DNA of 32,000 bases, from assembly GCA_943789275.1 (NCBI GenBank), contig CALSTM010000002.1, forward strand, positions 540,001-572,000, given 5' to 3'. This stretch comes from Candidatus Poseidoniaceae archaeon (GTDB taxonomy: Archaea; Thermoplasmatota; Poseidoniia; Poseidoniales; Poseidoniaceae). The position numbers and the translations under genes are program-made. The notes under the pieces were generated by a model, which worked only from the letters and a program-made list of their open reading frames with translations, searched no databases and was not told where the DNA came from. How positions within the stretch are numbered: the first letter of the stretch is position 1; the number at the start of each line of letters is the position of its first letter. Below are positions 3,157 through 21,675 of this stretch, piece by piece.

Positions 3157-3957
3157 CTAGTTTTGTGGAGTTGCAATTAAGACAACAGATATACCGTGTC
3201 TTGATGGCATTCTTCTTCTCTTTTGGCTCCCGATAATTGCCATGAATTTATTGTAAGTCCTCGATAGAATATCCATCCTCTGTTCTTCACCAATCATGTG
3301 TACTTTTTCGACTTTGAATCCTGCGGCTGTGGTTAATCGAGCTATTGTGTAAGGACTGAACCAGAATCTGTGATCTGAATTGATATTCTCAACTCCATTT
3401 CTCCATGCCCTTCGTGCAACACTTGAGAAAGCATTTGGAACTGTAATGATGATTCTATCATAGAGGTGCCCTAATGTCTCATTCAGATGTGTTAGGAATT
3501 GACCAGGGTTGTCTAAATGTTCCACTACCTCGGCTAGGAGAGCAAAATCATAGTGGCGCCCTTCTGAGAAGTTTTCAGTCTCACTGTGGACTTCAAGGAT
3601 ATCACAAATATGGAGGTCAGGGATGTCGTACTTTCCTTGTAAATGTTCAATTGCTTCGACATTGATATCGATACCGGTAACATTTTTTGATTTTTTAATA
3701 AGGGCACTATGTAGGTGTTTTCCTGCTGCAATCTTTGCATCGATTACATCTAGATGATCGGCGCAACCGATGTGAAGAACCGTCTTGCTTTCAAGTAATG
3801 AGCCAAGAAATGTAACACGATCGGTTGGGGTTTTAACATCTACATGGGAGATTGGAAATGAGAGATTACTATCCAGAGTTTCTCCAGTGAGAAATGGGCG
3901 AATTCCATCGAAATGAGATTCTTGCATAAGGTGGGCTCCTCTTAAGACATATTTCAT
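3157..3957 (-). CDS. class I SAM-dependent methyltransferase
   Basis: ATG at 3957. Motif I-like VLHIGCADH, post-I GIDIN, and LLAEVVEHL typical of the Methyltransf_11/23 type. Its start overlaps the stop of the upstream glycosyltransferase (TAATG), which suggests coupling. Confidence 0.8.
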   Translation of the reverse strand: MKYVLRGAHLMQESHFDGIRPFLTGETLDSNLSFPISHVDVKTPTDRVTFLGSLLESKTVLHIGCADHLDVIDAKIAAGKHLHSALIKKSKNVTGIDINVEAIEHLQGKYDIPDLHICDILEVHSETENFSEGRHYDFALLAEVVEHLDNPGQFLTHLNETLGHLYDRIIITVPNAFSSVARRAWRNGVENINSDHRFWFSPYTIARLTTAAGFKVEKVHMIGEEQRMDILSRTYNKFMAIIGSQKRRRMPSRHGISVVLIATPQN

Positions 3958-5174
3958 TATGCCTTTCCAATCTCATTTGTAATTTCATCAATGATCGAGG
4001 TGAATTTTTGAGCATTTTTTGTTGAGTCGAAGTTTTCTAATTGGATCCTGTTCACTTTTTCTCTAATTTGTGAGTCTTCGGACCATTCGTTGATAATTTT
4101 GGCAATATCTTCAGAGTTGGAATCCGGTGGAATAATGTGTTTTTCCAATACAATCTCATTGTTACCACCCACATCCGTTGCAACAACAGGAATACCATGG
4201 GAATAAGCTTCCATAATCGACACTGGAACTCCTTCAGATGAGCTGGTGTTCAACATCAAATCAATCGGTTCTGTCTTCAAGTATTGAAGAACGGAACTAT
4301 GTGGCAAATTTCCTAGAAACTCTACTTCAATATGGGGTGGGAGATTCGTCAAATAAGTCATGATATTGTTTCTTTCAGGACCGTCCCCAATGTGAGTCCA
4401 ACGAATTTTTCGTGTAATATAGGGCATGGCTTGTGCTATGAGTTGTACACGTTTTACTTCAACAAGTGAGCTTAAAGATAGTATGTGAAGAGTTTCTGTT
4501 GTGTTTTTTGGATTTTTGATATCTGAAGAAACAACACCCAAACGATGTGTTTGAATTCGATTATGAAATTCAGGAAATTGAGATTTCAAGTGATCCCTTC
4601 CAGCATCGGAAACAGAGAGAATCCTGTCTAAGCGACAGAGGGCCCATTCCTGTAATGGGAGGTGAGGGTAGTTTGCTCTCGATGCATAAATGTCACCTCC
4701 ATGGGCAAAAGAGATGGTTCTGATTTCGGGGTGATCCTCAGTAAGAAGGGCTGCAACAGTTGCTGGACGGTTTGCCCAATATGCAACAATTATGTCATTA
4801 TTTGAGAGGGTAATTGTTTGAGCAATTGAATCCTTTAGGAGAAGAGATTGGGCTAATTCTCCAATGATGATCGACCATGGAAGTGATGGTTTTCTCGATC
4901 TTTCGGAACGAAGGATATCGAGTCGAGTTAGACCTTTGATGGCGCGTCTAAATTTACCCCAACGATTCCATTTCTTAACAGCCAATGTAACTGGCTTAAT
5001 ATTGACATTAATCTTTGATGAAATTAAATAAAATTCGGATGATTCTTCAAAACTTAGTCCCACAGGAATTACAATAATTTCGTCAATGTGTTTCGATAAC
5101 GCTTCAAGATCTGATGTAAGGAACGTCTCTCCAGGAGGGTAGGGCCAATGATTGGTCAGAAAAATGAGTCTCAT
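3957..5174 (-). CDS. glycosyltransferase, GT4-like (GT-B fold)
   Basis: ATG at 5174. C-terminal domain signature NTSSSEGVPVSIMEAYSHGIPVVATDVGGNNEIV (E-x7-E region). Very low GC (19/60 and 20/60 in two spot-counted lines). Confidence 0.85.
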   Translation of the reverse strand: MRLIFLTNHWPYPPGETFLTSDLEALSKHIDEIIVIPVGLSFEESSEFYLISSKINVNIKPVTLAVKKWNRWGKFRRAIKGLTRLDILRSERSRKPSLPWSIIIGELAQSLLLKDSIAQTITLSNNDIIVAYWANRPATVAALLTEDHPEIRTISFAHGGDIYASRANYPHLPLQEWALCRLDRILSVSDAGRDHLKSQFPEFHNRIQTHRLGVVSSDIKNPKNTTETLHILSLSSLVEVKRVQLIAQAMPYITRKIRWTHIGDGPERNNIMTYLTNLPPHIEVEFLGNLPHSSVLQYLKTEPIDLMLNTSSSEGVPVSIMEAYSHGIPVVATDVGGNNEIVLEKHIIPPDSNSEDIAKIINEWSEDSQIREKVNRIQLENFDSTKNAQKFTSIIDEITNEIGKA

Positions 5175-5488
5175 GCTTCCATCAACCCTTCCTCTCTTCC
5201 GTAGATGAACGGTTGTGTTCTTGAGTCACTGACTGCGAATCGTGTGTGAGATTGACGCCCATCTTCATCACCAACGCCGAAGCGTTCTTATTTTTTCCTA
5301 AAACGCTAAACATAAGAAAGTAATGTGCTAATTCATACCAAATGTCAGAATTTAAACGAATGTTGTATGGTAGTCGCAGACGCGTGACATCACGCTATCA
5401 AGCGAACGTTCGGTTTTCTTCGTGGTAAGGACGGTTGGTCCGACAGAGTTCGCTGACGCACACAGGAAGACAAGCCACAATCCACCGA

Positions 5489-6499
5489 TTATCGGTCGTT
5501 CAATAGGCCTTCGAGCCCGCTTCGAAATGCTGCGATGGAGCGCCTATGGTCAACCATTTGTGTGTGCTTGCGCGCCAATGCACCGTAGCGCTCACGGTCG
5601 TCGTACACGGCCCTCAAGGCTTCGATGACAGCATCAGCGTCATGGCCGTCGTCCACCAAGATGCCCCCTTCGCCCAGGGCTTCCTTTTGCGAGCCCACGT
5701 CCGACGTCACGCTTGGCACCCCGAACAAACCTGCTTCGCCGATGACCCGACCCCAAGAACCGGTCGTCTCGAAAAGAATGAGGTGAAGATCGATGCTGGC
5801 GAAGAAGACCGCTGCATCTACATGGCCGACGACGCGAGCATTCGGGTGGTGAGCGAGTTCCTGCGGATATGCACTGCCCCCTGCAATGTGAACTTCAGCC
5901 TCCGGCCAAAGCTCAAGCAATCTCGGCAGAAGGCGTTGATACATCCGCAACCCCTTCTCAGGGGTAACGACCATGATGCCTATGGTGGGTGGTGCTCCTT
6001 CTGGTCGCTTTGCCTGCTCGGCGGAGCGTAAGGCGTTGACATCATCCATGCTCCCAAAGCGACCACCGAAATCGATTGGCAGCGGTACGCTGTGGCCTTT
6101 TTGAATGGCAAATCGAGATCGGATGTCGGTGAGCAAACCTTCTCCAGCCGCACACACGAGGGCTGCACCCTCCATCACGGGTCGAAACCGTTCTTCGAGA
6201 CGGAACACAGTGTCGTCGCGGACGAACATGATGTAAGGCATGCCACGGGCTGTGAACGCTTCTGCAGCACCTGGTGCCCATTCGAGTTGGGTCAATCCGA
6301 TGCCACCTTCGTGCTCCTGCTTGTCCAACCATGTTCCGACACGAGCAGCAAACTGAGAACTACGCCGACCGATGTGCCGGTCATGGGCCCACTTTCTGCG
6401 TCTCATCTCACCCTTTCGTTCCCGCAAGCCCCAGGCCACCTTCGACCAGAAACCTTCGATGGGAAGATCCGTGGTGGAGAAGTCCACTTCGCGGCTCAA
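5489..6499 (-). CDS. glycosyltransferase-like GT-B protein; 5' region possibly frameshifted
   Basis: C-terminal domain IGIMVVTPEKG...HIAGG...LFETTGSWGRVIGEAGLFGVPSVTSDVGSQKEALGEGGILV. The track start is TTG. A typical GT4 N-terminus (MSTRRLFAAVRDLDPPGGGAERSLAA) lies upstream at 6724-6644 in the same frame but is separated by stops. High GC (37/60, 33/60, 43/60 in spot lines). Confidence 0.55.
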   Translation of the reverse strand: MSREVDFSTTDLPIEGFWSKVAWGLRERKGEMRRRKWAHDRHIGRRSSQFAARVGTWLDKQEHEGGIGLTQLEWAPGAAEAFTARGMPYIMFVRDDTVFRLEERFRPVMEGAALVCAAGEGLLTDIRSRFAIQKGHSVPLPIDFGGRFGSMDDVNALRSAEQAKRPEGAPPTIGIMVVTPEKGLRMYQRLLPRLLELWPEAEVHIAGGSAYPQELAHHPNARVVGHVDAAVFFASIDLHLILFETTGSWGRVIGEAGLFGVPSVTSDVGSQKEALGEGGILVDDGHDADAVIEALRAVYDDRERYGALARKHTQMVDHRRSIAAFRSGLEGLLNDR

Positions 6500-6941: not shown

Positions 6942-8111
6942 TCACAGGGAATCGTAAACTTCAGCCATGCGATTGCAAAACCGACTTTGGTCAAACCGTG
7001 TTGCGTATTCGATGAGTCCCGTGCGGGGTTTCGGCCAAGTATGCTCTTCATCGGCCTTGGTTCTGTTTTTCCAATTCGAAAAAACCGCAAGAATGGCTTC
7101 TCTCCAGGCCTCGATGTCGTCAGCAGGGAGACACGTCTCATCTGGCATCAGTTCATTGTGAGATGGAAGATTGGAACAAAGCACTGGCGTTCCACAAGCC
7201 ATTGCTTCTAAGGGTGGATATCCAAATCCTTCACTGGCGCTAGGGAAAAGCAGTGCTTCACTGGCAAATCGCATCTGCATCAAAGCTTCACTGGACACAT
7301 CACCGCCGTGTGATGTCCAATTTAGGACGTTGTTTGCACGTGCATGAATGGAGGCAGATGGACCACCGTATGGGCAATGTTCGTTGCCCACATGATGGAT
7401 GTGTATGTTTTCTTTCACATCCTTTTCAAGTCCCCCTAAGACCTGACACAAGAACTCCAGGCGCTTACGAGGTGCGTGACTTCCAACGATAAGCAGATGG
7501 CATTTCTTCGAGAAATTTCGAGCTGGGGAAAGAACTTCGCCGCTTTCCTGTGAGACTGGAGCGAAGGATGGAACTCGTAGGCCGAGTGGCACGCACACTG
7601 ATTTGACCTTCGGGAAATGTTCTTTGCAAGCGGACAAAGTCGCTTGTGAATCACACACCAACAGGTCTGCTCGGGAAAGGCCGTCACGTAATTTTTGCAA
7701 ATCTTTACGACGGAACCATCCGGGATTCTGTTCGCCAACATCAATCGTTTCATTCCCAATTCGAATTTGTTGTGGGAAAAGATGGAATAAATCATGTACG
7801 GTAACAACGGTTGGCACAGAACAGTTCTCTGGAATGAGATGGGCTTGTTCTTGATCGGTGATGTGAAGGAGGTTCAGTCCATGTTCACCCCGAGTCTTTT
7901 TCTCAACTTTTTTCGGATGCGAAAACCATCGCTTGTACAAGCGCGAGAGAGGATTCATTCGACGACGAAGAGGATATTCACAGACCTCTTGTGTGGACCA
8001 CCCTGCAATCTCTCCGCTGACGAGGGACGTAACGAGGTTGTGATGAGCCCCCCCAATGCCAGTATTACTGGCTAAGGCGCCGCCTCGAACGAGCAACACC
8101 TGTTTGGGCAT
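6942..8111 (-). CDS. glycosyltransferase, GT4-like
   Basis: Signature LLFPSASEGFGYPPLEAMACGTPVLCSNLPSHNELM. I prefer ATG at 8111 (MPKQVLLVRGGALASNTGIGGAHH, a typical strand-1/Gly-loop start) over the track's TTG at 8153. Confidence 0.85.
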   Translation of the reverse strand: MPKQVLLVRGGALASNTGIGGAHHNLVTSLVSGEIAGWSTQEVCEYPLRRRMNPLSRLYKRWFSHPKKVEKKTRGEHGLNLLHITDQEQAHLIPENCSVPTVVTVHDLFHLFPQQIRIGNETIDVGEQNPGWFRRKDLQKLRDGLSRADLLVCDSQATLSACKEHFPKVKSVCVPLGLRVPSFAPVSQESGEVLSPARNFSKKCHLLIVGSHAPRKRLEFLCQVLGGLEKDVKENIHIHHVGNEHCPYGGPSASIHARANNVLNWTSHGGDVSSEALMQMRFASEALLFPSASEGFGYPPLEAMACGTPVLCSNLPSHNELMPDETCLPADDIEAWREAILAVFSNWKNRTKADEEHTWPKPRTGLIEYATRFDQSRFCNRMAEVYDSL

Positions 8112-8241
8112 GCGTAAGCGTAGCGGCGAGACTTCTTGAAAGGTGAGACTCAAAGTTCGCTCATGCTTCAGTTTAATTTCGTAATCCAGTGTTAAAATGG
8201 AATTAAGTAGTCGGACGAATAGCCTCGTACGGGATGAGTAG

Positions 8242-8706
8242 ATGTCAACACCACCGCTTCGAGTTTCACGAGATGATTACAACGATGTCAGGAGTTCAAT
8301 CGAAAACGCCATATCACTCGGTGGTGATATCCGAGGAATTCTTGAATCTCAGAAAGAATTGAACCCAACCAATGATTTGCACAATGAAGTGTGCAGGGCT
8401 GGAGAGGCACTCAGCGTATTTGGATCACGGTGGACCATTGAAATTCTCTCGGCCTTGTACATTGCTGGACCACGTCGATTCAACCAAATGAAGAATCTCC
8501 TCGAAGGAATTTCTTCTCGAACACTTTCCGATAAACTGCGCTATCTCGCCGATGAAGGACTGGTTCACAGACAAGTCACTGAAGGTCCACCAATACGAGT
8601 GTCCTACCGCCTCACCGAACACGGTCGAACGTGTGGCCGTCTGCTTTCGCCGCTTGTGGCCCATCTGAAGATTCATCTTGGAACCGTCGTCGCTCAAGAC
8701 GAGTGA
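8242..8706 (+). CDS. HxlR-family winged-helix transcriptional regulator
   Basis: ATG at 8242. FGSRWTIEILSALYIAGPRRFNQMKNLLEGISSRTLSDKLRYLADEGLVHRQVTEGPPIRVSYRLTEHG matches the HxlR pattern (W..IL..L....RF.....I.GIS...L...L..L...GLV.R.......V.Y.LT..G). It also has an N-terminal extension of about 55 aa. Confidence 0.85.
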   Translation: MSTPPLRVSRDDYNDVRSSIENAISLGGDIRGILESQKELNPTNDLHNEVCRAGEALSVFGSRWTIEILSALYIAGPRRFNQMKNLLEGISSRTLSDKLRYLADEGLVHRQVTEGPPIRVSYRLTEHGRTCGRLLSPLVAHLKIHLGTVVAQDE

Positions 8707-8762
8707 CCCGTTCCCAAACACGAAAGGGATGGATTAAGAAAGGAGAACGCTGAGTTCGCTTT

Positions 8763-9425
8763 ATGCCTCTGCTTGCCCAATGGGTACGACAACGACCATG
8801 GTTGTCTGCTGGATTGGTCGGTGCTGCCGGAGGTGTTGTGGGTATTGCAAGCGGTGTTGCTGCGGCTGCTACAGCGGTTGGCGCTCTTGCCGTGGGCAGT
8901 GTTTCAAGTAAATCGCGAACGTATGAACATCCCTTGCGTCAAAGAATTTTATCCACCCTGGAGCAACATCCGGGATTGTGTTACCGAGAACTCCAGTCAA
9001 CCCTCAATGCTGCGAACGGAACGCTTCGGCATCACCTTGATGTACTGCAAACGGGAAGAAGCGTCACCGTCCTACCAGTGAACGGAAGAACCTGTTACTT
9101 TGCAGGAGCGCCAAGTCAGGTCGAAATCCTCCGTGGGATTGCTGTGACCGAAGAACGGGCCGCCACAGCGCTTCCAATTGGCCTTTCTCTGGTCCAAAAA
9201 CTCATCATTGAAGACATCAAAAAAGAGGGTGTACCTCGTTCACAAGCAGCACTTGCTCGAAGAATCGGCCGTTCACGAGCGACCGTTCATTCAGCGATCA
9301 AAGTCCTACGTCGCCGAGGTATATTGCGCGAGGACCGAATCGAAATGATGCCCCATATCGATATGGAAATAGAGTGGCACGGCTCGAAAGGCGTTGATTA
9401 CGACTGGCACGACGAGCGAAGATAG
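8763..9425 (+). CDS. membrane-tethered double HTH (ArsR-like wHTH) regulator
   Basis: ATG at 8763. N-terminal Gly/Ala-zipper hydrophobic helix (GLVGAAGGVVGIASGVAAAATAVGALAVG). Then RQRILSTLEQHPGLCYRELQSTLNAANGTLRHHLDVLQTG (ArsR-like) and a second HTH SQAALARRIGRSRATVHSAIKVLRRRGIL. Confidence 0.65.
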   Translation: MPLLAQWVRQRPWLSAGLVGAAGGVVGIASGVAAAATAVGALAVGSVSSKSRTYEHPLRQRILSTLEQHPGLCYRELQSTLNAANGTLRHHLDVLQTGRSVTVLPVNGRTCYFAGAPSQVEILRGIAVTEERAATALPIGLSLVQKLIIEDIKKEGVPRSQAALARRIGRSRATVHSAIKVLRRRGILREDRIEMMPHIDMEIEWHGSKGVDYDWHDERR

Positions 9426-9504
9426 GCGCTCTATTTTTCGTCGCTTGAGAGACAAATAATCCACAGCCTTCAAAGACCTTCGACAGAAACGAAGGCTGAG
9501 TGTC

Positions 9505-10617
9505 ATGTTTAGCGTCCGATTATCGGAAATCTCGTTGCCAGCGAGTGAACGTGATTTAGACAACCTCGTTGGATGGTTCATCGAGACGCTCTGTCTTGTT
9601 CGAAAGCGTGGTGAGGCGACTGCAGACTTCGGAAGGGCTGGACCTGTACATCGTCTGTTGAAGGAATACTTGTTTGCACAACCCGAAATCAGTTGGGATG
9701 CAAAAATGCTCGCTGAGGAATTAGCACTTACCCCCGCCTCCCTAAACCACCATCTCACCCGCTTGGTCGAAGCTGGTATCATCGGTTTCTCAAACGAAGG
9801 CAAAGGATGGCGGCGCTACTACCTCCGAGGGGGCTCTCTCACGAACGCTGTTGAGTTCTTTACTCTCCAATGTGAAACCATCGTCAAACAACGCATGGCG
9901 CTCCTTGATATGCATTGGAACAGAAACGAACCGTCGCCTTTACCAAAGACGACTCCATCAGAAACCCCTCCGCTAACCATCGGTATTGTCGACCACCGAC
10001 CGCTGTTTTCCGACAGCCAAGAAAGCCCTCTTTCGCAATGGATGGGCGATTTCGGACTGCTTGGAGAACGTCCAGGGAAAGAAGCACATGCCGAGTCGAT
10101 CTCGGTACAATTGTTTGAAATTTTACTCAACAGAGATTTGCCCCTTTCACTCGATGAGGCTGAGGAGTTACTCGATGACCAAAAACCACGACTGGGGAGA
10201 ATACTTGAGCGTTTTCGAACCACTGGAATGGTCCAGAGAGTGCCCCGCATTGACCGACTAAGCGTCGCTTTGTGGACTGCAATGACTGCACAACATCAGC
10301 GTCGAGGTGAAGATTGGATGCTCAAGAAAGGTGGATTTCAGCGTATCCTCAACACCAAGCAACAATCCTCACTCCTTTCGCAAATGAAGGCTGGAAAATT
10401 GAAAATTGAGGATGTTGAAAAAAGCATGCAGGGCCACTCATCAGAAGAACAAATGTTGTTGCTCAATTTACTTGGAGGAAGACTTCCTCTGGGCCACCAA
10501 ATGTGTGGATATTCATCCGCCGAGGTTCATCGCGAAATCGCCGCTCGTATCGATAAGATTCTACGCCGTATGAGGAGAGTAGCTCAGTTATACGAACAGG
10601 AAATGCATCCTGAGTAA
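9505..10617 (+). CDS. ArsR-like winged-helix protein with a large uncharacterised C-terminal region
   Basis: ATG at 9505. AKMLAEELALTPASLNHHLTRLVEAGIIGFSNEGKGWRRYYL is an ArsR/SmtB-type recognition helix plus wing. A possible second wHTH lies around SLDEAEELLDDQKPRLGRILERFRTTGMVQRV. The rest is not recognised. Confidence 0.6.
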   Translation: MFSVRLSEISLPASERDLDNLVGWFIETLCLVRKRGEATADFGRAGPVHRLLKEYLFAQPEISWDAKMLAEELALTPASLNHHLTRLVEAGIIGFSNEGKGWRRYYLRGGSLTNAVEFFTLQCETIVKQRMALLDMHWNRNEPSPLPKTTPSETPPLTIGIVDHRPLFSDSQESPLSQWMGDFGLLGERPGKEAHAESISVQLFEILLNRDLPLSLDEAEELLDDQKPRLGRILERFRTTGMVQRVPRIDRLSVALWTAMTAQHQRRGEDWMLKKGGFQRILNTKQQSSLLSQMKAGKLKIEDVEKSMQGHSSEEQMLLLNLLGGRLPLGHQMCGYSSAEVHREIAARIDKILRRMRRVAQLYEQEMHPE

Positions 10618-11721: not shown

Positions 11722-12336
11722 TCAGAAGGTGGATTGCCAGTCTTCCAAGTCTTGAGAAGCAGCCCAGTCTTCATCGGTCATTTGACCACGAGCCTTGAGA
11801 ACTTCACGAGCGAGGAGCCAGTAAATGAATGCGAGAGAACGACGACCTTTGTTGTTCGCTGGTAGAGCGACATCGACGTTTCGAAGGTTGTTGTTTGCAT
11901 CAACAATTCCGACAATTGGCAAACCAGAGTTTACTGCTTCACGAAGTGCTTGTTGGTCAGCCGCTGGGTCGGTCACGAAAAGGACATCAGGTTCAACGTA
12001 TGAGCGGAGAACCGGGTTGGTCAAGGAACCGGGGATAAAACGGCCTACTGCAGAGTTTGCTCCAATTGCTTCAGAGAAGAGACGAGCAGGGCGTTGGCCG
12101 TATTGACGAGCAGAGACGACCATGATTCGTCCTGCCTCGTACTTGTTGAGGAATTGTGCGATGGAGCGAATTCGTGAATCGGTCATGTTGACGTCAAGCA
12201 GATACAATCCGTCTTCACGAACGCGTTCAATGAAACGAGCCATGTCTGCACTCTTCTGTTGAGTACCAATGTTGACTGCGTTCTCTTCATACGATTCGAA
12301 GGGCAAGAGTAAGTTCGATTCTTCGGACATGGTCAT
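11722..12336 (-). CDS. rps2: 30S ribosomal protein uS2
   Basis: Archaeal/eukaryotic-type S2: IGTQQKSADMARFIERVREDGLYLLDV, GRFIPGSLTNP, DVLFVTDPAADQQALREA, GLPIVGIVDANNNLRNVDVALPANNKGRRSL. ATG at 12336 or 12330. Confidence 0.9.
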   Translation of the reverse strand: MTMSEESNLLLPFESYEENAVNIGTQQKSADMARFIERVREDGLYLLDVNMTDSRIRSIAQFLNKYEAGRIMVVSARQYGQRPARLFSEAIGANSAVGRFIPGSLTNPVLRSYVEPDVLFVTDPAADQQALREAVNSGLPIVGIVDANNNLRNVDVALPANNKGRRSLAFIYWLLAREVLKARGQMTDEDWAASQDLEDWQSTF

Positions 12337-12364
12337 TCCTCAGCAGTCGTCCGACTTGGACTCC

Positions 12365-12372
12365 ATATTAAA
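12365..12372 (-). promoter_or_regulatory. TATA-box-like element (TTTAATAT on minus strand) upstream of rps2
   Basis: Centred about 32 nt upstream of the rps2 ATG at 12336, in the divergent 152-bp intergenic region. The spacing fits a very short leader. Confidence 0.3.
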
Positions 12373-12488
12373 GCGGTTCGTAGAGACGCGGAATGAAATT
12401 GTACCCAACCTTTGTCTGATTTGGACGGGATTGCCTAGGAAGAACTCAAGTGGTAAAGCCAAAGTGTTCATGGAGAGGGGGTTTGAAC

Positions 12489-13667
12489 ATGACTGCGAGT
12501 AACGAGCAAACCGAGGGACTGAGTGCAACTCGTTCCGAAGATGGAGTTTGGCGTAACCCAGAAGGAGTCGCTCTGCCGGTGAGCGCCAGTGATTTAGAAC
12601 GCCACGAATACTGTCCACTTTCATGGTCGTTGTCCCGACAAGGTAATTCTGGACAGGGTGAAGCCATCGTCGCCGGAATCAAAAGACACGCTGAAATTCA
12701 CACCCAAATGAAAGACTTTCAAGCCGTTCAAACGCAAATGCGGCGTTCTGTCACCATTTGGACGTGGTGGTTCTCCGTAATCATTGCATTATCGATTGAT
12801 GCTGTGGCGTTCAATTACATTGACGATGTGATCACTCCACTCTACATGGCACGATACCTCGCCTTGTGGAGCGTTACCACCCTCATTGCTGGACTGATTG
12901 CCATTTCGGTCCCATGGCGTTCATGGATTGGTATCAACGAAACCGTGCCTCGACAGAAAACGAAGTTTCTGGAAGAACGTGATGACCTGCAACAATTCTG
13001 GGAACCTAAAGGATTCATCGGTGGATGGTTTGAAGCAGGAAGAGTCGAAGCGAGTTTACTGTTCGGTTCTATTGTCCTAGGGCTTCATGCCATCGCTCTT
13101 GCCGCTGCAGACAACAGAGACCAAGCGACGTTTATTCTGTTCATCACTGCAATGACTTGGACGCTGGCAGCATCATGGCAACTTCAGCGAGTTTTGCTTT
13201 CGGACACAGCCCTTCAAACGATGAAGAAAGACATTGACATTGAGGCAGATGCTGAAATCGCCTACTCCGACAATGATGTTGACTCAAATCTCCTCATTGA
13301 TGAAAAATTAGGGTTGCGAGGCAGGCCCGATCAGATTGTCATTGTCGACGGTGAATTTATTCCAGTCGAACAGAAGACCGGTAAAGTCCCTAAGAATCCA
13401 CATTCCAGTCACCGAATGCAGTTGCTTGCATACCTACATTTGGTGGAAAAAAGCACGAGCAAAAGCTCACCGTACGGCGTTTTGCGGTACGGCAGCGAAA
13501 ACTTGCATCAGATTCCTTGGACAGTGAATGCCAAAAAGGAACTTCGTGAAGCGGTATCTGAGATTCAGCGGCTTATGGTTGAAGGTGGAGCAGTACGAAA
13601 TCATGAGCGGCCCGGGAAGTGCAGAAATTGCTCTCGACGATACGCATGCGATGATTCCCTTGTATGA
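12489..13667 (+). CDS. Cas4/DUF83-like PD-(D/E)XK Fe-S nuclease with an internal 4-TM insertion
   Basis: I prefer ATG at 12489 (GGAGAGGGGG upstream) to the track's GTG at 12450. Numbering from that ATG: C42 (HEYCPLSW), GIKRHAEIH, D281 (GRPD), E294-x-K296 (VEQK), Q311xxxY315 (QLLAY), C378-x2-C381-x5-C387. Residues about 88-236 form four hydrophobic helices. Confidence 0.7.
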   Translation: MTASNEQTEGLSATRSEDGVWRNPEGVALPVSASDLERHEYCPLSWSLSRQGNSGQGEAIVAGIKRHAEIHTQMKDFQAVQTQMRRSVTIWTWWFSVIIALSIDAVAFNYIDDVITPLYMARYLALWSVTTLIAGLIAISVPWRSWIGINETVPRQKTKFLEERDDLQQFWEPKGFIGGWFEAGRVEASLLFGSIVLGLHAIALAAADNRDQATFILFITAMTWTLAASWQLQRVLLSDTALQTMKKDIDIEADAEIAYSDNDVDSNLLIDEKLGLRGRPDQIVIVDGEFIPVEQKTGKVPKNPHSSHRMQLLAYLHLVEKSTSKSSPYGVLRYGSENLHQIPWTVNAKKELREAVSEIQRLMVEGGAVRNHERPGKCRNCSRRYACDDSLV

Positions 13668-13668
13668 C

Positions 13669-14226
13669 TCATTCACAAACGTCTTCCAATGGGTAGGTCA
13701 AACAGGTACGCGTGACGATGACATTAATTTCGAAATTGTCTTGCAGAGCGGTGTTTTGCAACCCTCCGCCTCGTGCGTTAATATCTAATCGCCAATTTCC
13801 GCTTTCAAAGGTAGTAGAGCCCTCTTCCATGAGAAGCGGGTCAGTCGATGCACCGAGGTCTTCGCACACATCGATGGACCAAGCGAGTGTATTGGATGGA
13901 GTATACAGTTCTGCTCGGACATAGCGGGTGAAACTCTCAAAACAACCAATGTCTTCAGTTCCGGTTATTTGCACCTTCCTGTAAATTGAAATTTCATTGA
14001 CGGAATCATCAATGGGGATGAACGTTGAGTTGGTGTATCCTTCCCATTCAAACAGGTTATAGAATACCTTGATTTCTTTGTAACTGGTTGTTTCAGTATT
14101 AAATTCCGGAGCCTCTCTCCCGTTTTCCAAAAACTCTCTTGATTGGAGAAGTCCCAAACATCCTGATGATGAACCAAGAACGATGGTCATGGCCAACAAA
14201 ATAGGCATGCTCCAACGGCTCTTCAT
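13669..14226 (-). CDS. secreted/lipoprotein-like hypothetical protein
   Basis: I prefer ATG at 14226 (MKSRWSMPILLAMTIVLGSSSGC: signal peptide ending in an imperfect lipobox-like SSGC). The mature part is beta-rich with 4 further Cys. No family recognised. Confidence 0.55.
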   Translation of the reverse strand: MKSRWSMPILLAMTIVLGSSSGCLGLLQSREFLENGREAPEFNTETTSYKEIKVFYNLFEWEGYTNSTFIPIDDSVNEISIYRKVQITGTEDIGCFESFTRYVRAELYTPSNTLAWSIDVCEDLGASTDPLLMEEGSTTFESGNWRLDINARGGGLQNTALQDNFEINVIVTRTCLTYPLEDVCE

Positions 14227-14373
14227 CGGTTTGCCCAAGTGCGCCCTACATATCAATACAATGCCGAAATGATACGAGGGTTTGAAACCTGAGAGATGCA
14301 GCACTCCTTGTCCGAATGACGCTTGCGGTTGCCGAGCACCTGCAATGACGAACCCTATGAAAGCCGACGGACA

Positions 14374-17175
14374 TCACTCGAACTTCGCACCGCAGGTTCC
14401 ACATTCTGTTGCTTCCACAGCCAGATCTGCACCGCACGCACCGCACTCAGCAACATCAGATTTGGACTCTTCAGCTGCCTTGCGTCGAGCGCCTCTTCGG
14501 CGTGCTGGCTTGTCTGCCTTTGGCGTTAATTCATCAATCTTAGAAAGTGGCTTTTCGTCGTCGATAACGGTGAAGTCGGAAGTCGTTTCAGAAACTTCGT
14601 TTCCAGCAAATGCTGAATCTGAAAGTTGCATTCCAACATTGACCTTGTCTCCTGGCATAATTCCGTCTTCACCGGTAATCTCGTACAGGCGTCCTCGAAT
14701 GTCTGCATCGCTTGCAGAGAGGTCTTTTCCATCGTCTTTGTGAGAAATTAGTTCACCCTTCGAAGCCAAAATCGCATCGATGTCATTGGTACTTTCCGTC
14801 AAGTCTTTCATGCTCTTGAGGGTTGTAGTGACCGTGTTCTGATAGGCCTCCAATTCCTCTTCTGTCATGTCTTCACGCAGAAGATCTTCAGCGTTTCGAC
14901 GGTCATAGGCTGCCTCAACTTCAGCTTCAGCAGAAACAATGTTTTCATCCCATTCATCCTCGAGTTGATCTTCATCAAATCCAAACTCCTTGACTGCTTG
15001 TGCAAAGTTCTCAGTTCCAGTCACGATGGCATCTTCGTCAATTTCCTCTGGTAAAGCCACCGTTTCTTTGACCGACCGTTCCTTTCGCTCGCGCTTCTCA
15101 AAGTAAGAGGATACATCTTGCTCTGCACCACAATAAACGCAGTTATCGAGCAAGTCAGGTATCGACTCACCGCACTCGTTGCAATCGTGGAATTGTTTTC
15201 TTGCCTTTTTGAGGTTGAAGGAACAATGAGGACATCGGTCTTCGTCACCTTCAAGTTCGCCGTCGCATGCTGGACAGTACTCGAAAATGTCACGCTCAAC
15301 TTCATCTTCAGACTCCCGAGTCAAGAACACTGAGATGGCAAGAATAGCAATCAAGATGAAGGCTACGATACCAATCAAAGTGAATGTCCCAAGTTCTGAA
15401 TTGGAATTCATGTCCTCAAGGTCTTCTCCACTCAATACCGTGGAAAAAGTTCGAGTGAAGGTGTTGGAAACGGTGGGGTCCGAGGGGACCAAACGAACGA
15501 CGGTTGATGGGGCAACGGCCGTAAAGTCACACTCAACGGTGACCTTATCTCCGAGGTTCATCACTTCAGCATTCATCGTGCTGAGAATTTCATCGTTGCC
15601 ATCAACACAATCGTAAGCAATTGAACCGGTAGCTGTGCTGGTCAAATCTATGCTAAGAGAATACTCAACGCCTTGCGTCATTGGGAGGGCAAAAGCTGAA
15701 CCTTCAGAATCGGTCACTTCGAGTGTTGCGAGAGCCCAATTAAGGCGTAATTCTGCTTCAACGGAGACCATGCCTGTTGCAACGCTGTTCAAGGGGTTTG
15801 AATCCCAACTGTTGGCAGAGGCGACCCATTGTGCTTCAAAGTCAGCCTCATGTGCACCGATTGAAGTTGTTAATTCGATGACCCATGTGAAATCCTGACC
15901 TGAATCAAGATAGATGACTGGAGAAGTTTCCGTCGTTCCTTCCCACGTGTAATGCAAACGGCCGGAAACTCGGATGTCGCCGGTATTGATCATGCTAACG
16001 CGCCATTCGACTGAATCTCCAGAATTCACCGATGGAGAAGAAGCAATAGCGTTGGAATCAACGAAAACATCTGGAACCTCGAACTTGGAAAGCGTAGAGG
16101 ATACCTCATCGTTCTCGGTTGATTCCTGTGTGAATGCAGCATTCGAGAACGGATCAATCTTGGCCGTGATGGTGTGGGTTCCGGCCGACAATCCATCGAG
16201 TTCAGCAGCCGTAATGGAATGGCTCCATGTGGATTCAGCATACCCGGTACCGCTCAGCGATACACTGAATGGAGCAGTGGTGACCAGTTGCCCGGTTGCG
16301 GATGTAATTTGAAGCCACATCGGCACTTCAGATACACCAGTTCCGTTGGTTCGACCCAGTTTCCCAGACACAACCCAAGGGCCCTGTAGAGCACCATCAG
16401 CAATTTCTACGCCCAATTCTCCGACATGGAAGACATCCATTCGTGTATCGACTGTAAACGGTACCTCGACCACTTTATTGAACTCAGATGATTCCTGAAC
16501 TGCATCTTGGTAATCTGGTGTCACATAGAGGGTGTGGGAGCCACTTTCTGGAGCTGTGAACGTCGTGTTAACCCATTCTGTTGCTCCTGCAGCGAGAGGT
16601 GGAGTAACGAGTTCTTGGTCACTCGCACCAGGGAAGTCGATGTGGAGGGTGCTTGCAACTGCAGGCTCACTGCCCACATTACGAACAAGCGAGGAAAGCG
16701 TTACTGTGTCACCGGAAAAAATTCCTGTTGAGGGGGTAAGTTCAGTTTGTGTTACTTTGAGGTTCGGAAGTCCTGTTACGGTAAAATCAACATAAAATTC
16801 AGCCACTGTTCCAGAACCTCGAGGATGTTGGAAGGTGATGTAAACTTCATGTTCGCCTTCGGTAAGACCACTCCAAACTGCAGAAACTGGAGCCGAAGTT
16901 TCCGTGTCTATGTCTACAGTCGCCTTTTTGATAAGCTGATCCGAGGAAATGAAATCACGATAAAACGAATATTCAACATCGGTTGCATAATTACCACTGT
17001 TGTACAATTGCAGGTTAATCGTGACCGAACCTCCTGCTACTGGATTGGATGGTTGAAGGGCAACCGTGCTCGGACTCGCTTGAATCGAACCGCTTTGTTC
17101 TGCCGATGCTGGCATCGGAACCGATGCGATACAAAGAAGAAGAATTGCCAATATCGGCTTCCACGCGCTTGCCAT
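14374..17175 (-). CDS. type I membrane cell-surface protein: signal peptide, multiple CARDB/Ig-like domains, one TM, acidic cytoplasmic tail with three zinc ribbons
   Basis: ATG at 17175 (MASAWKPILAILLLCIASVPMPASA); the track start is GTG at 17202. CARDB-like segments (NPVAGGSVTINLQLYNSGNYATDVEYSFY; GDTVTLSSLVRNVGSEPA; SGDSVEWRVSMINTGD). TM is LGTFTLIGIVAFILIAILAISVFLT. Zinc ribbons: CPACDG..CPHC, CNECGE..CVYCG, and C-terminal CGACGA..CGTCG. Confidence 0.75.
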   Translation of the reverse strand: MASAWKPILAILLLCIASVPMPASAEQSGSIQASPSTVALQPSNPVAGGSVTINLQLYNSGNYATDVEYSFYRDFISSDQLIKKATVDIDTETSAPVSAVWSGLTEGEHEVYITFQHPRGSGTVAEFYVDFTVTGLPNLKVTQTELTPSTGIFSGDTVTLSSLVRNVGSEPAVASTLHIDFPGASDQELVTPPLAAGATEWVNTTFTAPESGSHTLYVTPDYQDAVQESSEFNKVVEVPFTVDTRMDVFHVGELGVEIADGALQGPWVVSGKLGRTNGTGVSEVPMWLQITSATGQLVTTAPFSVSLSGTGYAESTWSHSITAAELDGLSAGTHTITAKIDPFSNAAFTQESTENDEVSSTLSKFEVPDVFVDSNAIASSPSVNSGDSVEWRVSMINTGDIRVSGRLHYTWEGTTETSPVIYLDSGQDFTWVIELTTSIGAHEADFEAQWVASANSWDSNPLNSVATGMVSVEAELRLNWALATLEVTDSEGSAFALPMTQGVEYSLSIDLTSTATGSIAYDCVDGNDEILSTMNAEVMNLGDKVTVECDFTAVAPSTVVRLVPSDPTVSNTFTRTFSTVLSGEDLEDMNSNSELGTFTLIGIVAFILIAILAISVFLTRESEDEVERDIFEYCPACDGELEGDEDRCPHCSFNLKKARKQFHDCNECGESIPDLLDNCVYCGAEQDVSSYFEKRERKERSVKETVALPEEIDEDAIVTGTENFAQAVKEFGFDEDQLEDEWDENIVSAEAEVEAAYDRRNAEDLLREDMTEEELEAYQNTVTTTLKSMKDLTESTNDIDAILASKGELISHKDDGKDLSASDADIRGRLYEITGEDGIMPGDKVNVGMQLSDSAFAGNEVSETTSDFTVIDDEKPLSKIDELTPKADKPARRRGARRKAAEESKSDVAECGACGADLAVEATECGTCGAKFE

Positions 17176-17367
17176 GTAGGTAATCGACAACCTGCGGAGC
17201 ACTTGAACCCATCTCTATGAGCCACGAAAAAAACCGCATCAAGGCTGAGATTTGTCAACTCCACATGGTCCTTTGACCGTTGACAATAAGAAGACGCCAA
17301 GCATTTGCCAACAAAACGGCCCCTACGAAGGGGAGCATTCAAGGATAACCGCACCCGTCACAGCACC

Positions 17368-20979: not shown

Positions 20980-21675
20980 TCAACCAAACAAGGCTTCGAG
21001 GTCCTCGTCATCGTCATCGTCGTCGTCAGTATCGTCTTCCGCTGGATATTCTTCAACAGGGACATGTGGAACCTCTTCGGCGCTAACTGTTTCTTTAGCA
21101 TCGTCATCTGAACCGAACATGTCGTCGTCGTCGTCATCGTCAGAACCAAACAAATCGTCATCGTCGTCATCGTCAGAACCAAACAAATCGTCACCATCGT
21201 CGTCTCCGTCATCACCAAACAAATCGTCTGTCTCTTCTTCAGGTTCATCCATTGTACCGAAGGTGTCCGAGAATTCATCGTCATCATCATCGTTTGAAGT
21301 GTTCATACCAAAGAAGTCCAACTCCTTCGGAAGAACGCCTTTACGTGAGAGGTACATTGCTTGTGTCTTTGTGTAACGGTGCTTCACATCCGCTTTGGAA
21401 TCTTGGAAATCCCATGGCCAGACAATAATCAAATCGCCATCGCGGACCCATTGTCGGCGACGCATCTTACCCGGAATACGAGCCATGCGAGTTTCCCCGT
21501 CTTCACAAAGAACGGTCACCCGTCGGCCGCCGAGGATTTGTTCGGCAAAAGCGAACATCTCGTTGATTTTACGGTTCGGCATCTTGACACGGATTTTACC
21601 GCCCGACGCATCTTCTGGATTTTCAAGACGAGCAAGCTCCTCTACATCCACTTTTTCTTCATAACGTCGACCCAA
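20980..21675 (-). CDS. translation initiation factor aIF1A with a long acidic C-terminal extension
   Basis: OB-fold core: IRVKMPNRKINEMFAFAEQILGGRRVTVLCEDGETRMARIPGKMRRRQWVRDGDLIIVWPWDFQDSKADVKHRYTKTQAMYLSRKG. TTG start at 21675 with AGGTGA 6 nt upstream and an in-frame TGA two codons further upstream. The first ATG falls inside the conserved IRVKMP segment. Confidence 0.9.
   Translation of the reverse strand: MGRRYEEKVDVEELARLENPEDASGGKIRVKMPNRKINEMFAFAEQILGGRRVTVLCEDGETRMARIPGKMRRRQWVRDGDLIIVWPWDFQDSKADVKHRYTKTQAMYLSRKGVLPKELDFFGMNTSNDDDDDEFSDTFGTMDEPEEETDDLFGDDGDDDGDDLFGSDDDDDDDLFGSDDDDDDDMFGSDDDAKETVSAEEVPHVPVEEYPAEDDTDDDDDDDEDLEALFG
21110..21234 (-). repeat. tandem 33-bp coding repeats (GAY-rich) inside the aIF1A tail
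   Basis: Units start at 21110, 21143 and 21176 (gaacc[g/a]aaca[t/a][g/a]tcgtc...catcgtca). Each encodes about D7-[L/M]FGS. The third unit is degenerate. Confidence 0.7.

Follow-up and report, generated by a model that had tools for sequence, protein, structure and literature searches.

A solo-Cas4 protein of Poseidoniales archaea divided by a predicted four-helix membrane module

A 32,000-nucleotide (nt) stretch of DNA from a Candidatus Poseidoniaceae archaeon (contig CALSTM010000002.1, positions 540,001 to 572,000; called the window below) carries a complete gene for a 392-amino-acid (aa) Cas4-family protein in which the two parts of the nuclease fold are separated by four hydrophobic helices. 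We are highly confident of this membrane-split architecture. The protein is probably the Thermoplasmatota form of archaeal solo-Cas4, built as an integral membrane protein that, by analogy with characterised Cas4 enzymes, would be an active nuclease. Its biological role is a far more tentative matter: we propose, with low confidence, that it would act on DNA that lies at the membrane or passes through it, foreign DNA entering the cell being the likeliest substrate. The gene and the parts of its product are as follows, in window coordinates.

12489..13667, + strand: membrane-split solo-Cas4 nuclease, complete gene (392 aa plus stop; start ATG 12489, stop codon 13665-13667), from the open reading frame (ORF) listing and matches to PF01930 and TIGR00372
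12489..12749, + strand: N-terminal half, predicted cytoplasmic, aa 1-87, from invariant columns, alignment to 8d3l and a predicted local distance difference test (pLDDT) of 88-96
12612-12614, + strand: C42, predicted iron-sulfur (Fe-S) ligand, in HEYCPLSW / SASDLERHEYCPLSW
12687-12689, + strand: H67, predicted metal ligand, in the G63xxxH67 helix
12750..12815, + strand: transmembrane (TM) helix 1, aa 88-109, VTIWTWWFSVIIALSIDAVAFN, with WTWWF and D104 invariant in Poseidoniales, Kyte-Doolittle 1.72, within model helix 58-114
12852..12914, + strand: TM helix 2, aa 122-142, Kyte-Doolittle 1.94, model helix 117-140
12915..13049, + strand: predicted cytoplasmic loop between TM2 and TM3, aa 143-187, with 7 Lys/Arg and invariant PWR and GGWFEAG
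13050..13109, + strand: TM helix 3, aa 188-207, with invariant H200, Kyte-Doolittle 2.02, model helix 185-206
13128..13235, + strand: TM helix 4 (aa 214-235, WTLAASWQLQR) and predicted cytoplasmic stalk (aa 236-249), model helix 210-249
13236..13664, + strand: C-terminal half, predicted cytoplasmic, with the PD-(D/E)XK core, aa 250-392, from Pfam/NCBIfam, PDB Cas4 and Foldseek matches and invariant columns
13329-13331, + strand: D281 (GRPD)
13368-13370, + strand: E294 (E294-Q-K296)
13374-13376, + strand: K296
13419-13421, + strand: Q311 (Q311LLAY315)
13431-13433, + strand: Y315
13620-13649, + strand: C378x2C381x5C387, predicted Fe-S ligands

Membership in the Cas4 family is most readily seen in the C-terminal half, which alone is matched by curated profiles when the native protein is searched. 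Residues 260-388 match both PF01930 (41.6 bits against a cutoff of 22.7, E = 1.8e-10) and PF12705 (E = 2.7e-11), and residues 268-387 match TIGR00372 'cas4' at model positions 59-178 of 180 (68.6 bits, cutoff 65). The N-terminal 87 residues, searched alone, yield no Pfam or NCBIfam match. We assign them to the Cas4 fold because of a joined construct, a profile-to-PDB alignment and the structural model described below. When the insert was removed in silico by fusing aa 25-80 to aa 253-392, TIGR00372 matched in a single alignment covering model positions 3-178 of 180 (73.1 bits), and the score against the Cas4g/Cas1g model rose from 37.9 to 50.2 bits. Similarly, a profile of 24 family members compared with PDB sequences aligns with the type I-C Cas4 8d3l in two collinear stretches (E = 1.9e-8), the N-terminal one of which places Y-C-P over F-C and GxxxH over GxxxH. 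The same profile also matches Cas4 4r5q, SSO0001 (4ic1) and the Cas4-Cas1 fusion 7mi4, whereas a single-sequence search of the PDB gives marginal matches only (E >= 0.18).

The motifs of the family are distributed over both halves. The N-terminal half contains a lineage-specific beta-hairpin with DGxWR, the SASDLERHEYCPLSW motif and the G63xxxH67 helix, and the C-terminal half adds a family-specific motif, R370-N-H372, to the residues listed above. All named motif residues are invariant in 14 Poseidoniales homologues (57-100% identity), and the catalytic and cluster residues, including H67, show full or at least 90% conservation across 59 relatives that extend down to 23% identity. The four cysteines (C42, C378, C381 and C387) are invariant in every alignment, and binding of a 4Fe-4S cluster is predicted from sequence. 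C42 and the catalytic Asp D281 lie 239 residues apart with four TM helices in between, and the protein is therefore not a contiguous soluble domain of ~160-220 aa. An earlier note on this DNA had described an ORF at 12489-13667 and had named C42, D281, E294/K296, Q311/Y315 and C378/C381/C387 as Cas4 hallmarks. The ORF is present exactly as described, each residue is found at the position given, the collinear Cas4-profile alignments bear out the reading of both halves, and the Cys, Asp, Glu and Lys residues prove to be kept family-wide.

The insert that separates these halves comprises ~160 aa; it follows the His helix and precedes the first core strand. Its first three hydrophobic helices have mean Kyte-Doolittle values of 1.7-2.0 in a 19-residue window. 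TM4 (aa 214-235) is weaker and passes at 1.25 in a 17-residue window, and it is a confident helix in the AlphaFold model. We predicted the topology from hydropathy and the positive-inside rule. The TM1-TM2 loop (aa 110-121) is short and acidic and is predicted to lie outside on the basis of loop charge statistics. Predicted outside loops comprise 8-17 aa with 0.4-1.0 Lys/Arg, and predicted inside loops and flanks carry 2-11 Lys/Arg. Because the helix counts are even and the loop charges are biased in this way, the data indicate that both nuclease halves are cytoplasmic, as an Fe-S enzyme requires. The earlier proposal of a four-helix hydrophobic insertion thus withstands closer inspection, as does its argument that an even helix count would leave both halves on the same side of the membrane; the loop charges add that this side is probably the cytoplasm.

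Substitution rates were compared with the two closest genomes, to which this analysis was restricted, synonymous sites being saturated in all others. The insert has a nonsynonymous rate (dN) of 0.03 and a synonymous rate (dS) above 1, for a dN/dS of ~0.02, and the four helices alone give ~0.01. The dN of the insert is below that of the C-terminal half (0.055) and that of the N-terminal half (0.09). These values argue that the insert is functional and under strong purifying selection. Within Poseidoniales, WTWWF, D104, PWR, GGWFEAG, H200 and WTLAASWQLQR are invariant. Family-wide, TM4 is the best-conserved TM helix (pattern A..WL..A) and the other TM helices keep no recognisable pattern; the TM2-TM3 loop is found in Poseidoniales and their closest relatives only. 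The sole Pfam signal in the insert is a weak MARVEL match (E = 0.013). An intein or other mobile insertion was also considered and rejected, as the insert has no Hint or endonuclease Pfam domain and its dN/dS is not that of a neutral sequence.

A first AlphaFold model, based on 14 close homologues, was poor (pLDDT 61.8) and was superseded by one built on an alignment of 59 sequences (23-100% identity), which has a pLDDT of 84.2 and a predicted template modelling score (pTM) of 0.76, with low confidence only at residues 1-3 and 167-182. The model helices span residues 58-114, 117-140, 185-206 and 210-249, and the first core strand begins at residue 256. TM1 is an unbroken continuation of the His helix, the two forming the single helix 58-114. 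In Foldseek searches against the PDB, the top matches are Dna2 (2.7e-5) and Cas4 8d3l (1.5e-4), the Cas4-Cas1 fusion 7mi4 superimposes with a root-mean-square deviation of 1.9 A over 119 columns, and further matches include MGME1, the Argonaute-associated Cas4 ACE1 and AdnAB. The earlier note had suggested that the Fe-S/nuclease fold could still assemble. The confident model and its matches uphold this suggestion, and a clustering of the four cysteines would be expected from them.

Although the earlier note treated this as a single odd gene, it instead belongs to a family that spans the phylum and whose members have 2, 4 or 8 helices or are split into two genes. A profile search of 1.84 billion representative proteins returned 1,052 matches at E <= 0.001, and in a survey that took a single genome from each GTDB species at least 585 genomes carried a relative, the best 80 of which are all Poseidoniales. 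Homologues of equal length to the 392-aa protein number more than 1,129, and those with names come from Candidatus Poseidoniales/Poseidoniaceae (the Marine Group II archaea). No relative was found on the viral contigs of IMG/VR.

In 325 full-length relatives, the stretch from the N-terminal Cys to the GxPD motif was scored for its number of hydrophobic helices. An even number was found in 317 of these: four helices in 259 proteins, two in 32 and eight in 26. The remaining 8 have odd counts that are marginal threshold calls. This sample consists of the best matches of searches seeded with the 4-helix Poseidoniales protein and with a 4-/2-helix alignment, and the proportions of the classes mirror that sampling and not natural frequencies. 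All 2- and 8-helix proteins that carry a name are from Thermoplasmata/Thermoplasmatota, among them Candidatus Natronoplasma and Candidatus Poseidoniia. Tandem duplication of the 4-helix module gave rise to the 8-helix forms (z = 14-24 relative to shuffled sequences in 4 of 5 tested), whereas hairpins 1 and 2 of the 392-aa protein have no detectable similarity to each other. No 6-helix form was seen among the relatives examined. One 8-helix example is encoded at 8001-9791 of locus L006 (P0135), and the others are likewise relatives of 500-600 aa.

The family matches also include proteins of ~170 aa, one of them from an Anaerolineaceae bacterium, that have a single N-terminal TM helix followed by the nuclease core and that lack the N-terminal Cys. 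Their helix aligns with the last helix (TM4) of the archaeal proteins. At three independent loci, an overlapping upstream ORF of 74-90 aa encodes the YC...GxxxH module and one TM helix, and the downstream ORF of 172-182 aa encodes one TM helix and the nuclease core. The upstream ORFs are as follows.

L092, 4759-5004: ...EYEFCPTAWY...GMLYH..., in the two-gene locus 4759-5519
L094, 4753-5025: ...QYVYCPISWY...GIREH..., in the locus 4753-5549; not called as a gene in the source
L096, 262-486: ...NFLYCQRSWW...GIDFH..., in the two-gene locus 262-1007

These are two-gene versions of the 2-helix architecture, broken in the outside loop. These natural split forms show that the two halves work jointly and are joined through paired TM helices. 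L092 lies in surroundings reminiscent of a mobile element; the genes there include ParA-like, SNase, DUF5131 and helicase genes.

The gene context is that of a core gene. The order uS2, Cas4, lipoprotein-like protein, CARDB protein, Ig-like protein, KH protein, Rio1 and eIF-1A is kept on contigs of up to 2 Mb whose homologues are 61-69% identical. Elsewhere in Thermoplasmatota the Cas4 gene stands next to differing housekeeping genes, and cas genes are not among them. Because of this synteny, the presence in at least 585 species genomes and the lack of relatives on viral contigs, the Cas4 gene is seen to behave as a vertically inherited core gene. Neither cas genes nor a CRISPR-like array is present in the 32-kb window, and no cas genes occur in about ten related loci that were inspected in detail (L001-L008 and L089-L091, from Poseidoniales and other Thermoplasmatota). 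The absence of CRISPR-cas genes, which the earlier note had read from the window, therefore extends to these loci, and the flanking genes that it gave (rps2 and surface-protein genes) are likewise recovered, with uS2 upstream and the lipoprotein-like and CARDB proteins downstream. By sequence and fold the protein is a member of the Cas4 family and by context a solo-Cas4. The lack of a cas context means that, operationally, it does not count as a CRISPR-associated Cas4. Its label in public sources is 'CRISPR-associated protein Cas4' or 'Dna2/Cas4 domain-containing protein'.

Solo-Cas4 proteins are vertically inherited, common in archaea and encoded outside CRISPR-cas loci (Hudaiberdiev et al. 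2017, PMC5704561). One of them, from M. mazei, is an Fe-S protein and Mn2+/Mg2+-dependent DNase that forms a large oligomer and slows growth upon overexpression (PMC12501428). The protein described here shares with archaeal solo-Cas4 the Cas4/DUF83 fold, the four cysteines, D...ExK, QxxxY, a stand-alone gene, vertical inheritance and the lack of cas neighbours. However, the described solo-Cas4 proteins are contiguous and soluble with ~170-220 aa, and here ~160 aa with four TM helices intervene. The word 'transmembrane' is absent from the Cas4 phylogenomics paper (PMC5704561), and we found no description of a membrane-embedded or transmembrane Cas4 in the full-text literature, the coverage of which is incomplete so that absence is unproven. 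The membrane-split architecture is thus apparently new to the literature; the earlier note had not recognised it as a described one either.

Other nucleases and defence systems share some of these features. The best matches for both halves are CRISPR-associated Cas4 proteins (8D3L of type I-C, 7MI4, 4IC1 SSO0001 and 4R5Q Pcal_0546), from which the present protein differs in lacking a cas1/cas2/array context, in its added membrane insert and in its family-specific RNH...GKC..CSRR and Y-x-D motifs. The Fe-S PD-(D/E)XK domains of Dna2, AddB/AdnAB and MGME1-like proteins share the fold class, but these are soluble domains of helicase-nuclease machines, whereas here there is no helicase and the protein is predicted to be membrane-integral. 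In bacterial DNA uptake, ComEC, EndA and NucA are membrane-located nucleases whose catalytic domains face outward or are part of a channel. The likeness to them is one of functional analogy only, in that a nuclease is positioned at the membrane; the folds are unrelated, and the Fe-S domain here is predicted to be cytoplasmic. Zorya is a membrane-anchored, multi-gene defence complex with a patchy distribution. The same description applies to Kiwa (PMC11785009). Both combine a membrane-embedded component with action on invading DNA, as is proposed for this Cas4, but the latter is a single core gene without homology to either (the PADLOC library was not searched).

The computed data support the following organisation of the protein. 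One Cas4 fold is built from two cytoplasmic segments, of which the N-terminal one supplies the first of the Fe-S cysteines together with the His helix that binds metal, and the C-terminal one D...ExK, QxxxY and CxxCx5C. The membrane module is entered straight from the His helix, and its exit helix leads to the first core strand. The nuclease domain is thereby predicted to sit on the inner side of the membrane, held by a two-helix stalk that runs on into the membrane helical bundle. By analogy with characterised Cas4 enzymes, it would bind a 4Fe-4S cluster and cleave DNA in an Mn2+/Mg2+-dependent manner. The membrane module might keep a potentially harmful DNase at the cell periphery and away from the nucleoid, where the enzyme could act as a first-line barrier or as a processing step for incoming DNA. 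We hold this last idea weakly, because the gene context offers no partner and because core-gene behaviour suits a housekeeping function equally well.

Several points weigh against this interpretation. Gene context lends the proposed role no support: the genes nearby are housekeeping ones and differ between Thermoplasmatota lineages. Strict vertical core inheritance is unusual for defence genes and would suit housekeeping just as well. The clustering of the four cysteines is something we infer from model confidence and fold matches and not from distances. The strongly conserved polar residues in the Poseidoniales TM helices (D104 and H200) suggest that the module has a function beyond anchoring. 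Finally, activity, cofactor, localisation and topology are all predictions, drawn from the sequence and the structural model.

We therefore considered other explanations. A housekeeping nuclease for repair or recombination, sharing whatever general role archaeal solo-Cas4 has, with no link to foreign DNA and with an insert that merely limits toxicity or sets stoichiometry or location, is unlikely in our judgement. It would suit a single-copy, syntenic gene that is inherited vertically amid ribosomal and translation genes and is missing from viral contigs, and also the observations that solo-Cas4 evolves like regular cellular genes (PMC5704561) and that overexpression of a soluble solo-Cas4 slows growth (PMC12501428). 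However, a repair enzyme must reach the nucleoid and membrane anchoring restricts its access, and one two-gene form (L092) lies among mobile-element-like genes.

It is also conceivable, if quite improbable, that the TM module and an oligomeric Cas4 ring together form a DNA conduit or gate, making the protein a translocation-coupled nuclease for uptake, export or the interception of injected viral genomes. We know of no archaeal uptake nuclease. The module is highly conserved in Poseidoniales, has polar residues in its helices (D104 and H200) and a dN below that of the nuclease halves, and appears to grow in modular steps of 2, 4 and 8 helices. Moreover, some Cas4 proteins are oligomeric: SSO0001 is described as toroidal or of high order (as cited in PMC13621843), and the M. 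mazei oligomer has a mass of 318 kDa (PMC12501428). In contrast, Foldseek against the PDB gave no channel-like fold match, none of the contexts inspected ties the gene to a pilus, an ATPase or a DNA-binding partner, the TM sequences are poorly conserved in the wider family, and a pore made from two-helix forms would require large oligomers.

A role in CRISPR adaptation, exerted in trans with a CRISPR-Cas system elsewhere in the genome, would agree with the passing of the TIGR00372 'cas4' equivalog cutoff and with the name 'CRISPR-associated protein Cas4' in public sources. We judge it very improbable, as cas1, cas2 and an array are missing from the window and from about ten related loci, to which the scan was confined, and as a conserved core location in at least 585 species genomes is unlike the patchy distribution of CRISPR-Cas.

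An artefact (chimeric assembly, fusion of two genes by a frameshift, or an insert that is hydrophobic yet soluble) is scarcely credible even though two-gene versions in other lineages imply that fusion and fission did occur in evolution: chimeric assembly is excluded because more than 1,000 proteins or clusters from independent assemblies and projects (including contigs of 1-2 Mb) share the same uninterrupted architecture of 392-398 aa, the insert has a dN/dS of ~0.02, and its segments have 20-22 residues, Kyte-Doolittle values up to 2.0, even parity and charge-biased loops.

If the protein is indeed a membrane-built solo-Cas4, its substrate should be DNA at the cell periphery. Solo-Cas4 is among the most widespread archaeal proteins of unknown role, and a membrane build provides a strong spatial clue. 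The annotation 'CRISPR-associated protein Cas4' is misleading for these genomes. The modular 2-, 4- and 8-helix forms are natural experiments, and so are the split forms, which mark the places at which the fold can be divided. Poseidoniales rank with the most abundant archaea of the plankton, and a membrane nuclease that is universal in this group could influence both the interplay of viruses with their hosts and gene flow in surface waters of the ocean. Should the DNA-gate reading be true, the machine would be the first of its type identified in archaea, carried by one of the ocean's most abundant archaeal groups.

Features adjoining the gene in the window are as follows.

12472..12481, + strand: purine-rich GGAGAGGGGG stretch, 7 nt 5' of ATG 12489, read from the sequence
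11722..12336, - strand: uS2 (archaeal ribosomal protein, rps2), divergent upstream neighbour (TIGR01012, 240 bits)
13669..14304, - strand: lipoprotein-like protein, convergent downstream neighbour, with an SSGC lipobox-like signal (…GSSSGC…) and no Pfam match
14374-17202, - strand: CARDB surface protein of 942 aa, with an N-terminal signal, a CARDB domain and a TM segment

GGAGAGGGGG is a possible ribosome-binding site that would favour ATG 12489 over an alternative in-frame GTG at 12450, use of which would lengthen the protein by 13 residues. The numbering from ATG 12489 was kept because homologues start at an equivalent Met and because of the position of GGAGAGGGGG. By eye, no convincing TATA-like promoter element for the + strand gene was seen in 12337-12488, and ATATTAAAG at 12365-12373 suits the divergent rps2 gene better than the Cas4 gene.

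The uS2 gene also adjoins the Cas4 gene in L001-L005 and is a syntenic marker outside the system. The lipoprotein-like protein is 40% identical to its L001 equivalent and its position is conserved, with its stop 1-3 nt from the Cas4 gene stop in all loci seen. The C-terminal region of the protein encoded at 14374-17202 contains several CxxC double-zinc-ribbon motifs and acidic stretches, and this gene is syntenic across Poseidoniales. An association with FtsZ was considered, as ftsZ lies within 2-6 kb in two relatives, and was dismissed as coincidence because the gene is absent from the window and from three further contexts. In two non-Poseidoniales loci (L007 2039-8010 and L090 727-7023), the Cas4 gene overlaps the end of a same-strand upstream gene that is, or comes after, one for a very large protein (1,840-2,098 aa, no Pfam match). 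This arrangement may be an operon and was not seen elsewhere.

The genes of the window include those for glycosyltransferases, helix-turn-helix (HTH) regulators, Dus, uS2, Cas4, the lipoprotein-like protein, the CARDB/zinc-ribbon surface protein, an Ig-like protein, a KH/Pno1-like protein, Rio1 and eIF-1A, as well as the nuo operon. Two adjacent HTH/winged-helix proteins are encoded at 8763-9425 and 9505-10617 (+ strand), one of which matches the HVO_0163 N-terminal HTH. They are preceded by an HxlR-type regulator (8242-8706), and the trio is kept upstream of Dus and rps2 in L004/L005. Between 2001 and 5000, GC content falls to 0.40-0.43, compared with ~0.50 elsewhere, over methyltransferase and glycosyltransferase genes (3157-5174, - strand), and this stretch may be a horizontally acquired glycosylation cassette. 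Lastly, the eIF-1A-domain gene (20980-21675, - strand) contains a 33-bp tandem repeat (21110-21228; 3.5 copies, 84% matches) that encodes an acidic, Asp-rich repeat extension.

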